From Pseudomonadota bacterium (GTDB lineage: Bacteria > Pseudomonadota > Gammaproteobacteria > Steroidobacterales > Steroidobacteraceae): a stretch of 64,000 nucleotides of DNA. The stretch lies in contig JADIZR010000007.1 of assembly GCA_016704655.1 (NCBI GenBank), positions 1,348 through 65,347 on the forward strand, read 5' to 3'. Positions within the stretch are counted from its first letter, which is position 1; every line of letters starts with the position of its first letter. Below are positions 53,144 through 57,041 of this stretch, in pieces. Position numbers and translations under genes: made by a program. A model generated the notes under the pieces. It was not told where the DNA came from. It made no database searches and saw only the letters and a program-made list of their open reading frames with translations.

Positions 53144-54058
53144 TCACTTCGTCTGCACCGCGTGCCCGCCGAAGGCCTGGCGCATGCGTGCCAGCAACCG
53201 GTTGGTGAAATCGCCTTTGCCCTGGCTCGCGAAGCGCTCCATCAGCGAGAGCGTCATGACGGGCGTCGGCACGCCGAGCTCGATCGACTCGATGGCCGTC
53301 CAGCGGCCTTCCCCGGAATCCGCGACCAACGGCACCGTCGACTCGAGCGTGGCGTCCCTGGCCAGAAACTCTGCCGTGAGGTCCAGCAGCCAGGACCGGA
53401 TCACCGTGCCGTGTCGCCAGGCTTCCGTGATCTGTGGCAGGTCGAGCGCAAACTCGCTCTTGGCGCGCATCAATGCGAGCCCTTCGGCGTAGGCCTGCAT
53501 CATTCCGTACTCGATGCCGTTGTGGACCATCTTGGTGAAGTGCCCCGCACCCGCCGGGCCGCAGTGCACCCAGCCGCGATCCGGTGCTGGCGCCAGCGCC
53601 TGCAGCACGGGTTCGATCGCGCGGACAGCCGCGCCGTCGCCACCCACCATGAGTCCGTAACCGTTCTCGAGGCCCCAGACGCCACCCGAGACGCCGGCGT
53701 CGACGAACAGCATGCCGTGTGCGCCGAGGTCCGACGCGTGCCGCTGGCTGTCCTTGTACATCGCGTTGGCACCGTCGACGACGACATCGCCCGGCGACAA
53801 CAGCGGCACGAGCCGTTGCAGGGTCTCGTCCGTTGGCGCTCCAGCAGGCAACATCAGCCAGACGATCCTGGGCGTGGGAAGGCTCGATACAAGGGCTTCC
53901 AGTGTGCCGGCGAGCTCGATGCGCGGCTCGTCGGTCAATCCCGTGCGGGCTTCGGGTGAACGATCCCACGCGACCACGGCGTGGCCGGCGCGGGCGAGGC
54001 GACGGCTCATGTTGCCGCCCATCCGACCCAGTCCAATCATTCCCAACGTGAGGTTCAT
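53144..54058 (-). CDS. gnd: 6-phosphogluconate dehydrogenase, short (YqeC/Gnd-like) form
   Basis: MNLTLGMIGLGRMGGNMSRRL Rossmann start, then GDVVVDGANA...VDAGVSGGVWG. Confidence 0.85.
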   Translation of the reverse strand: MNLTLGMIGLGRMGGNMSRRLARAGHAVVAWDRSPEARTGLTDEPRIELAGTLEALVSSLPTPRIVWLMLPAGAPTDETLQRLVPLLSPGDVVVDGANAMYKDSQRHASDLGAHGMLFVDAGVSGGVWGLENGYGLMVGGDGAAVRAIEPVLQALAPAPDRGWVHCGPAGAGHFTKMVHNGIEYGMMQAYAEGLALMRAKSEFALDLPQITEAWRHGTVIRSWLLDLTAEFLARDATLESTVPLVADSGEGRWTAIESIELGVPTPVMTLSLMERFASQGKGDFTNRLLARMRQAFGGHAVQTK

Positions 54059-54129
54059 CGCGTTCCGATCCATTACAGCCCGGCGGGGGCGATCGATGGT
54101 CGCGCGATGCCGGGACGCGCACAAGGGCG

Positions 54130-54600
54130 TGCCGGCCCCCCGGGGGGCCGGCGTACCCCCCCATCGTCGCGTACGCTCACTACATGGACGGCCGGCAGCC
54201 TGCTGCGGCGCCTGCCACTGAGCACCGGAAGCTTACCGGTCGGGGGGGGGGGAGGGCGCTATTGCACCGGACCGCTGTCCATGCCGACGTGCTCGAACGA
54301 GGGCGGAGTGGCGGTCCGCGCCGGGCCCGGGCGCCGCGCCGGGCCGGCTGCCGCCGCTCCCGAGCGCCCGGGCCGCCCGGGGGGGGCGGGGCGGGGGGGG
54401 GTCCGCGGTCCCCGCCCCCCCCCCCCCCCCGGGCCTGGCAGGCCGCTTTGCCCGCGCCCGCGCGCCCCCCGAAGCGCACCCCCCCCCCCCCGGGTCGTCC
54501 CTTTCCTTGTCGGCGGGCTGCTCGCGTTCTGTCCGTTGGCGGGTTGGGGCCGCGGGCCGCCCTCCGGTCGCGCCTCCCCCCGGGGCGCCGCCGCCCCGCC
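54130..54600. repeat. extremely GC-rich non-coding region dense in G/C homopolymers
   Basis: C6G6 palindrome at 54136-54147, C7 at 54156-54162 and G11 at 54242-54252. G8-C-G4-C-G9 at 54379-54401 is followed by C4-G-C16 at 54410-54430. C6 at 54465-54470, C13 at 54479-54491 and C6G4 at 54586-54595. Confidence 0.85.
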
Positions 54601-54720
54601 GCGCCCGCCGCCCGGCCCTACCCGCTCCGTCCGCCTTGAGGCACGCTCGCCGCAAAGCCCGGGACAGCCGGCAGCCAAGGGGCTAGTCTTGCTCCACGCA
54701 AGAAGAGCCGTGGACGGGCA

Positions 54721-56034
54721 ATGGATATCGATGCACTGACACTCGCGCGGCTGCAGTTCGCCTTCACGATCAGCTTCCACATCATCTTCCCGGCCATCTC
54801 GATCGGGCTGGCCAGCTATCTCGCCGTGCTTGAGGGCCTCTGGCTCTTCACCGGCCGCGTCGTCTTCCTCGACCTCTTCAATTACTGGAAGAAGATCTTC
54901 GCAGTGGCATTCGGCATGGGCGTCGTGTCGGGCATCGTCATGAGCTACCAGTTCGGCACCAACTGGAGCGTGTTCTCCGACAAGGCCGGTCCGGTGATCG
55001 GGCCGCTGATGGGCTACGAGGTACTGACCGCTTTCTTCCTGGAAGCGGGATTCCTCGGCGTCATGCTTTTCGGCCTGTCGCGCGTGGGGCCGCGACTGCA
55101 CTTCCTGGCGACGCTGATGGTCGCGCTCGGCACGTTCATTTCCGCGTTCTGGATTCTCTCGGTCAACAGCTGGATGCAGACGCCGGCCGGCTACGCGATC
55201 AACGAAGTCGGCCAGTTCGTTCCGGCGGACTGGGTCGCAGTCATCTTCAACCCATCCTTCCCCTACCGGCTCGTGCACATGCTCCTGGCCGCGTACCTCA
55301 GCACGGCGTTCATCGTCGGTGGCACGGGTGCGCTGCATCTGTTGCGCGATGCGACGCTGCCTGCCTCGCGCATCATGTTTTCGATGGCGATGTGGATGGC
55401 CGCAATCGTCGCGCCGCTGCAGATAGTCGCCGGCGACTTGCACGGGCTCAACACGCTGGAGCACCAGCCCGCCAAGGTTGCGGCAATGGAAGGTCACTTC
55501 GAAACGCACGCGGGCGCGCCGCTCATCCTGTTCGGCTGGCCGGACATGGAGCAGGAGCGGACACGGTACGCAGTCGAGGTGCCGAAGCTTGGCAGCCTGA
55601 TCCTCACCCACGACTGGAACGGCACCGTGCGCGGGCTCAAGGAATGGCCACGCGAGGATCGCCCGAACGCGACCATCGTGTTCTGGAGCTTCCGCGTGAT
55701 GGTCGGGGCCGGACTTGCGATGCTCGCGGTCGGTGCGTGGAGCCTGGCGCTGCGGGCGCGAAAACGCCTGTACGACCAGCCGTGGCTGCTGCGCGCGTCA
55801 GTCGCCTTGAGCCCCATCGGCATCGTTGCCGTGATTGCAGGCTGGATCACCACCGAGGTCGGCCGACAGCCCTACACCGTTTACGGGTTACTGCGAACCA
55901 CGGACAGCGCATCGTCGATCGATGCCGCGGCAGTGGGCGCTTCGCTCGCCGCATTTGCAATCGTGTACTTCGCGGTCTTCGGTGCCGGTGCGTTCTACAT
56001 GCTGCGCCTGATGGGCAAGGAGCCGCGCGCATGA
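54721..56034 (+). CDS. cydA: cytochrome bd-type ubiquinol oxidase subunit I (short, CIO-like)
   Basis: LARLQFAFTISFHIIFPAISIGLA...GVVSGIVMSYQFGTNWS. Confidence 0.9.
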   Translation: MDIDALTLARLQFAFTISFHIIFPAISIGLASYLAVLEGLWLFTGRVVFLDLFNYWKKIFAVAFGMGVVSGIVMSYQFGTNWSVFSDKAGPVIGPLMGYEVLTAFFLEAGFLGVMLFGLSRVGPRLHFLATLMVALGTFISAFWILSVNSWMQTPAGYAINEVGQFVPADWVAVIFNPSFPYRLVHMLLAAYLSTAFIVGGTGALHLLRDATLPASRIMFSMAMWMAAIVAPLQIVAGDLHGLNTLEHQPAKVAAMEGHFETHAGAPLILFGWPDMEQERTRYAVEVPKLGSLILTHDWNGTVRGLKEWPREDRPNATIVFWSFRVMVGAGLAMLAVGAWSLALRARKRLYDQPWLLRASVALSPIGIVAVIAGWITTEVGRQPYTVYGLLRTTDSASSIDAAAVGASLAAFAIVYFAVFGAGAFYMLRLMGKEPRA

Positions 56035-57041
56035 TGCACCTCGATCTCGCGCTGATCTGGGCAGGGCTGCTCGCCTTCGCGGTGCTCGCTTATGTCGTGC
56101 TCGACGGCTTCGACCTCGGCGTTGGCATCCTGTTTCCCTTCATGCCCGAGGAGATGCAGCGCGACGAGATGATGAACTCGGTTGCGCCGGTGTGGGACGG
56201 CAACGAGACATGGCTCGTGCTTGGAGGCGGCGGTCTGTTCGCCGTCTTTCCGCTGGCCTACGCGATCATCATGCCCGCGCTGTATGCGCCCGTGATCGCT
56301 CTGCTGCTTGGGCTCGTCTTCCGCGGCGTGGCTTTCGAATTTCGCTGGAAGACACAGCGCGGCAAGTTCCTGTGGGATGGCGCATTCACCGCTGGATCCA
56401 CGATGGCCGCGTTCGCCCAGGGAATCGCGCTCGGCGCGCTGGTGCAGGGAATTCCAGTGGCGGGCCGCGCTTATGACGGTGGCTGGTGGGATTGGCTCAC
56501 GCCTTTCAGCGTCCTCACCGGCGTATCGCTCGTGTTCGGCTATGCGCTGCTCGGCGCGACCTGGCTCATCTACAAGACGCAGGGTCACACCCAGCAGCGG
56601 GCGTATCGATTCGCCGCTGTTGCCGGCGGCGCGACGCTGGCCGCCATCGGGCTAGTCAGCCTGTGGACGCCCTTCCTCAGTGATGTGTTCATGCAGCGCT
56701 GGTTCTCGTGGCCGCGGATCCTGTTCGTGGCGCCGGTTCCGGCTCTTGTCGCTCTCGCTGCGTATGTCCTTTTCAACGGCCTGCGACGGCGGCAGGAACT
56801 GAGCCCCTTCCTCGCGTCGCTGGCGCTGTTCGTCCTGTGCTTCGTCGGACTGCTGATCAGCTTTTTCCCGTACCTGGTGCCGACGTCGGTCACACTGTGG
56901 GACGCGGCTGCGCCGCCATCGAGCCTCAAGTTCCTGCTCGCGGGCGCCGCCTTCCTGATCCCGATCATCCTCGTGTACACCGCGTACTCGTACTGGGTGT
57001 TCCGCGGCAAGATCGAACCGGGCGGCGGCGGTTACCACTGA
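56031..57041 (+). CDS. cydB: cytochrome bd-type ubiquinol oxidase subunit II
   Basis: ATGA overlap with cydA. Sequence LDGFDLGVGILFP...VAPVWDGNETWLVLGGG. Confidence 0.9.
   Translation: MMHLDLALIWAGLLAFAVLAYVVLDGFDLGVGILFPFMPEEMQRDEMMNSVAPVWDGNETWLVLGGGGLFAVFPLAYAIIMPALYAPVIALLLGLVFRGVAFEFRWKTQRGKFLWDGAFTAGSTMAAFAQGIALGALVQGIPVAGRAYDGGWWDWLTPFSVLTGVSLVFGYALLGATWLIYKTQGHTQQRAYRFAAVAGGATLAAIGLVSLWTPFLSDVFMQRWFSWPRILFVAPVPALVALAAYVLFNGLRRRQELSPFLASLALFVLCFVGLLISFFPYLVPTSVTLWDAAAPPSSLKFLLAGAAFLIPIILVYTAYSYWVFRGKIEPGGGGYH

Follow-up and report, generated by a model that had tools for sequence, protein, structure and literature searches.

Long G and C tracts between gnd and cydAB: a very probable assembly artefact at the site of a Na+/H+ exchanger gene

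What is the dense array of long G and C runs that separates a gnd-like gene from cydA in a 64,000-nucleotide stretch of DNA (the window) taken from a metagenome-assembled genome (MAG)? The original prediction described a hyper-GC intergenic region in the promoter region of cydAB, and considered that it could be an artefact of sequencing or assembly, a hypermutable switch governing cyd expression, or a structured-DNA element. The tracts themselves are not in doubt as deposited letters: all of those listed with the prediction exist at their places, and the flanking genes are as it described them, a gnd-like gene on the minus strand and cydA on the plus strand, in agreement with Pfam. The main tracts are as follows.

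54135-54146, C6G6 palindrome
54153-54159, C7
54242-54252, G11
54379-54401, G8-C-G4-C-G9
54410-54430, C4-G-C16
54479-54491, C13

The window's own genome (G000) comprises 3.95 Mb in 22 contigs, with 66% G+C. Between 54200 and 54600 the G+C content, taken in 200-nt windows, is 0.82-0.905, versus approximately 0.66-0.70 in the flanks and 0.66 in the genome. The description as hyper-GC thus holds, with the extent of the abnormal stretch corrected to approximately 54140-54642. Runs of at least eight G or C occur at 0.0075 per 500 nt in G000 outside hyper-GC islands (defined here as at least 85% G+C over at least 150 nt), while five fall within 250 nt at this locus. The tract density is therefore far beyond chance.

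Orthologous loci were located via cydA in genomes of the same genus and in public contigs. A search of the JGI metagenomes with a conserved 39-mer returned one related contig, Ga0316621_10004170, which was used as an independent reference; a 30-mer taken from the cydA leader had no exact match in the same metagenomes, and look-ups for proteins identical to those of cydA, the gnd-like gene and cydB brought up no other contig from this strain. In G001 and G012, the gnd-like gene and cydA are separated by a plus-strand gene of approximately 440 aa, which ends with '...HGISVTPLMNLYVRRKARDSRRPRG*' just upstream of cydA. Its product is identified as a Na+/H+ exchanger (Pfam PF00999, 6e-32). The JGI contig has the same gene order with an intact exchanger ORF of 449 aa, and the distance from the gnd start to the cydA start is 1571 nt there versus 662 nt in G000. 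The exchanger stretch measures approximately 1.43 kb in relatives versus 0.5 kb in G000. From these comparisons the true locus of the clade consists of a gnd-like gene (minus), an exchanger gene of approximately 440 aa (plus) and cydAB. The stretch is consequently misdescribed as an intergenic promoter region, since relatives carry the exchanger gene at that place. Read against these loci, the G000 sequence resolves into the following features.

53147..54058, minus strand, gnd-like 6-phosphogluconate dehydrogenase gene, 304 aa, intact (Pfam NAD_binding_2 7.4e-41, 6PGD 5.4e-22)
54059..54139, no strand assigned, conserved genuine leader by the gnd start, near-invariant across relatives; the last reliable sequence before the island
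54140..54161, no strand assigned, C6G6 palindrome and C7 (comparison with Ga0316621_10004170 and G001)
54162..54317, plus strand, recognisable 5' piece of the Na+/H+ exchanger gene with many 1-nt and larger deletions, including G11 (alignments to the JGI contig and G001)
54318..54642, no strand assigned, homopolymer junk, G-rich and then C-rich (G8CG4CG9, C4GC16, C13), standing for approximately 1.1 kb of exchanger body (global alignment to G001)
54643..54686, plus strand, genuine last codons (approximately 40 nt) of the exchanger gene with a TAG stop at 54684-54686, aligning to '...RRKARDSRRPRG*' of G001 and the JGI contig
54687..54720, plus strand, short cydA leader, conserved in G001, G004, JADJOO01, G062 and the JGI contig
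54721..56034, plus strand, cydA, cytochrome bd oxidase subunit I, 437 aa, intact (Pfam Cyt_bd_oxida_I 4.2e-165)
56031..57041, plus strand, cydB, subunit II, 336 aa, intact (Pfam Cyt_bd_oxida_II 1.2e-100)

The gnd-like gene of G000 aligns to its relatives with few indels, and the leader by its start is near-invariant in G000, JADJOO01, G001 and G004 up to '...GCACAAGGGCG'. In all relatives, BLAST homology ends at 54129-54139 and restarts at 54643-54650. Within the interval, the C6G6 palindrome and C7 (approximately 27 nt) replace approximately 150 nt of relatives that hold the exchanger promoter, start codon and first codons. By BLAST, positions 54318-54642 have homology to none of the relatives. 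A global alignment to G001 recovers faint collinearity with its exchanger gene from 54317 to approximately 54400, where A and T are missing or swapped for an adjacent G or C, and nothing aligns beyond. The G000 stretch is thus an ordinary gene in degraded and compressed form: both ends survive, approximately 180 nt at its start can be recognised although crowded with deletions, and its interior has collapsed into G and C homopolymers.

This placement bears directly on the proposal that cydAB transcription is controlled through tract length, either by a phase-variable contingency switch or by a G-quadruplex, i-motif or hairpin element. The tracts, 230-580 nt upstream of cydA, have lengths of 11-16 nt at which slippage is feasible, G-runs could form a G-quadruplex, and the central G and C halves pair. 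However, homopolymer tracts are absent from the orthologous locus in G001, G004, G012, JADJOO01 and the JGI contig, so they are not conserved in position, and they fall inside the body of a gene that is coding in relatives rather than in a promoter spacer; the conserved sequence 5' of cydA starts only at 54643. The predicted G:C hairpin does fold (-35.2 kcal/mol), but it is no more stable than expected from composition (z = -1.15 against dinucleotide shuffles, 28 of 200 of which were equal or better), and it is conserved in no relative. An Rfam search of the stretch gave no match above threshold, its sole hit being sub-threshold and attributable to chance. Islands of a similar kind also lie inside genes unrelated to cyd (see below). 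We therefore regard either form of cydAB control as extremely improbable.

The recognisable piece of the exchanger gene carries a more specific signature. When positions 54162-54317 are aligned to the JGI contig, 147 positions match and 9 are substituted, and 18 indel events, nearly all of them deletions in G000, account for a further 29 nt; the pattern against G001 is the same. In the same comparison, 1280 nt of cydA contain 97 substitutions and 0 indels. The substitutions in 54162-54317, few in number and not transition-dominated, are at the level of ordinary divergence between these genomes, which the indel load exceeds. Because 18 indels accompany 9 substitutions next to a cydA with no indels at all, the piece bears an error signature and not that of pseudogene decay. 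Hypermutation of a deaminase type, from A to G or T to C, was considered as well and rejected, since indels outnumber the few substitutions, whose spectrum is not dominated by transitions.

A decayed but real pseudogene deserves consideration nonetheless, as the remnant of an exchanger gene that is being lost could have drifted, or been hypermutated, to extreme G+C. The exchanger is dispensable and decaying in the genus. The G004 copy is partly deleted and contains an in-frame stop, and in JADJOO010000016 (G046; isolate Fred_18-Q3-R57-64_BAT3C.617) the near-whole gene is cleanly deleted, such that only 46 nt separate the equivalents of window positions 54139 and 54650. In JADJOO01 and G062, the near-complete clean deletion joins '...GAGCACCGG' to 'AAAGCAC...'. 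Intact, partly deleted and fully deleted alleles are thus all found within the genus, and the gene between gnd and cydA is undergoing loss in parts of it. Against a pseudogene in G000 stand the excess of indel events over substitutions, a substitution divergence no higher than that of the neighbouring intact genes, and a substitution spectrum unlike that of deaminase hypermutation. Moreover, similar junk overwrites conserved genes elsewhere in G000, with runs of 145-175 nt included. Genuine decay is accordingly a very unlikely source of the stretch.

Comparison of the gnd-cydA spacer among related genomes, which had been proposed along with the original prediction, gave a tract-free locus in the five relatives named above and one exception. 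G062, which at cydA is nearer to G000 than any other relative (95% nt identity), carries a different G-rich block of approximately 115 nt at the same site, on a deletion allele of the JADJOO type. Because both G000 and G062 show extra G/C-rich sequence starting at the palindrome, the GC palindrome by the gnd leader (C4G4 in JADJOO01, C6G6 in G000) could be an unstable, expansion-prone site, in which case the tract array would be partly real hypervariable DNA that was exaggerated by the assembly pipeline. We consider this improbable to a similar degree; the block in G062 is the sole finding that gives such instability any room, and G062 is itself a poly-G assembly. Among the cydA genes used to locate these loci, that of G003 (G003:C1:304836-306144) is broken over several frames with an internal TGA, which suggests that consensus errors of long-read assembly affect this sister MAG as well.

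The stretch is one of an assembly-wide class. G000 contains 32 hyper-GC islands totalling 17.5 kb, 31 of them besides the window's own, and none lies at a contig end. Their homopolymers include C175, G160, G145 and G97, and the longest islands reach 3.9 kb. Nine islands besides the window's own were compared with relatives; where genes are overwritten, the flanking DNA is approximately 90-95% identical. The island at C7:275591-275897 falls within a gene for a HycI-type hydrogenase maturation protease. Both G062, whose flanking DNA shares 95% nt identity, and G003 carry this gene whole, while in G000 C-rich junk separates the ~70 nt retained at its start from the ~45 nt retained at its end. At C2:161169-165113 (93% G+C, C175), G046 has 4.2 kb of normal composition with one ORF of 1266 aa, and at C2:196479-196831 (G160), G062 has a gene-bearing stretch of 1.28 kb. 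The island at C9:163-167k (G145 at C9:164026-165137) corresponds to a 5.2-kb insert with transposase-like ORFs in G062 and to 32-126 nt in four other relatives. At C4:170k and C17:59k the islands are purely inserted sequence, as in close relatives their flanks adjoin directly or with 2-4 nt between them. For C1:87k, the two flanks were found on one contig in none of the relatives searched. Neither homopolymers of 100-175 nt nor junk that replaces all but the ends of conserved genes can credibly be genome content.

One of the insertion-type islands differs in composition. G000:C4:170063-170400 contains G11, then A17, then approximately 250 nt of low-GC, C/A-rich sequence; it does not resemble the rest of the genome and is absent from G046 and G062, where nothing separates the flanks. 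A chimeric read, a small insert or adapter-like junk may account for it.

We conclude that 54140-54642 is, with high probability, an assembly artefact that overwrote the Na+/H+ exchanger gene, or a remnant of it, rather than a real feature of the genome. This reading, one of those offered at the outset, is favoured because the stretch is collinear with the exchanger gene yet compressed and riddled with indels, because 31 further islands recur in the assembly, some of them over conserved genes, and because orthologous loci elsewhere are free of tracts.

The genus does contain real G-rich repeats. An intergenic family with the structure [GGGGYTA]n-GTCGGA, a core of approximately 60-130 nt and TCCGAC-[TARCCCC]n forms inverted arrays of telomere-like TTAGGGG heptamers; examples are found outside the window at G000:C12:131140-131315 and G000:C6:185307-185392, as well as at one locus of G012. 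These elements look like MITEs capable of forming G-quadruplexes. Matches to three heptamers, allowing at most one mismatch, number 163 in G012, 139 in G001, 61 in G003, 27 in G000 and 0 in G008, and a control search with the reversed pattern returned 0.

A real GC-rich repeat or mobile element, for example one of these inverted arrays, might then have inserted into the exchanger gene and subsequently been garbled by the assembler. Such arrays are real and abundant in the genus, the island at C17:59083-59288 (G97) sits where G012 has a heptamer element, and the island studied here resembles heptamer elements in having G-rich sequence to the left and C-rich sequence to the right. However, the faint collinearity with the exchanger gene runs through the G-rich half to approximately 54400, and neither heptamer periodicity nor the GTCGGA/TCCGAC ends are visible in the stretch. 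The G-left/C-right layout is also not general: of the 12 islands with both G and C runs, 5 have G on the left and 7 have C on the left. Even if an element had inserted, the homopolymers themselves would still be artefacts. An insertion of this kind at the exchanger gene is thus very improbable. As a general cause of the islands, a garbled heptamer array was rejected, as it fits the C17 island and fits neither the one studied here nor the gene-overwriting islands.

The distribution of long G runs across the genus points in the same direction as the artefact reading. Runs of G25 occur in 8 of the 61 genus genomes searched (G000 and at least 7 of the 60 others), G046 among them, and are absent from G001, G003, G004 and G012. 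G046 and G062, both poly-G assemblies, have no junk at the insertion-type islands C4:170k and C9:163-167k. The poly-G anomaly tracks assemblies, not phylogeny. Two-colour Illumina poly-G read tails, a candidate suggested by the G-left/C-right layout at this locus, were rejected: the layout is not consistent among islands, the recognisable exchanger piece shows deletions rather than G substitutions, and the sequencing pipeline that could be identified used HiSeq X. HiSeq X instruments employ four-colour chemistry.

That pipeline was identified through the JADJOO010000016 MAG, which, judged by its isolate name, is one of the activated-sludge MAGs published by Singleton et al. 2021. Nanopore reads for those MAGs were base-called with Guppy 2.2.3 in flip-flop mode and assembled with CANU using corMinCoverage=0 and corOutCoverage=all, and the assembly was then polished by Racon run with --include-unpolished, by medaka in two rounds and lastly by Racon again, this time with HiSeq X reads (PMC8012365). 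Such CANU and Racon settings retain stretches that rest on one uncorrected read. The low contig number of G000 and its identical island type suggest a similar pipeline origin for this genome. A literature search for a poly-G/C polishing or base-calling artefact of exactly this form found nothing specific.

These settings point to a possible route to the artefact. The stretch may have rested on very few or badly base-called long reads of the Nanopore type, on reads from co-existing strains in which the exchanger gene was present, partly deleted or fully deleted, or on both. Consensus building and polishing would then have left the stretch uncorrected, or would have voted misaligned reads toward the commonest bases, which in a genome of 66-70% G+C would be G and C, producing homopolymers that repeated polishing rounds would reinforce. 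The G-rich block of G062 is read here as a recurrence of this artefact at a place where a large indel distinguishes co-existing strains.

In biological terms the stretch at 54140-54642 brings no novelty and gives cytochrome bd expression no new switch. It serves to flag the quality of G000 and related public MAGs. G000 is a species representative in public taxonomy, yet approximately 17.5 kb of junk is scattered through it in 32 places. This junk erases real genes, the Na+/H+ exchanger gene at this locus and the genes for a hydrogenase maturation protease and a 1266-aa protein elsewhere. Surveys of gene content, pseudogenes, repeats or G-quadruplexes that include such MAGs will take the islands as false signals. 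A simple screen is sufficient to detect them, looking either for G/C runs of at least 20 or for a G+C content of 85% or above in 100-nt windows.

Three known systems invite comparison. Contingency loci, in which homopolymer tracts mediate phase variation, are familiar from Neisseria, Haemophilus and Campylobacter, and resemble the present locus in having G or C tracts of 8-16 nt upstream of a gene. They consist of one tract, in a promoter spacer or 5' coding region, that is conserved in position and variable in length, whereas here many tracts lie inside a garbled gene, and the five relatives named above lack them. Two-colour Illumina poly-G artefacts also produce spurious G runs, which are read as C runs on the other strand, but the islands described here show deletions and compression and no consistent G-left/C-right layout. 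Consensus and indel errors in Nanopore metagenomes are usually scattered 1-nt homopolymer indels, whereas here whole stretches of 150-4000 nt become G/C homopolymers. The likeness lies in the local excess of deletions relative to orthologues and in the concentration of errors where community strains differ in gene content, and it extends to the origin of the data, as a genus-mate with similar islands comes from a Guppy flip-flop, CANU, Racon and medaka pipeline that keeps uncorrected, unpolished sequence.
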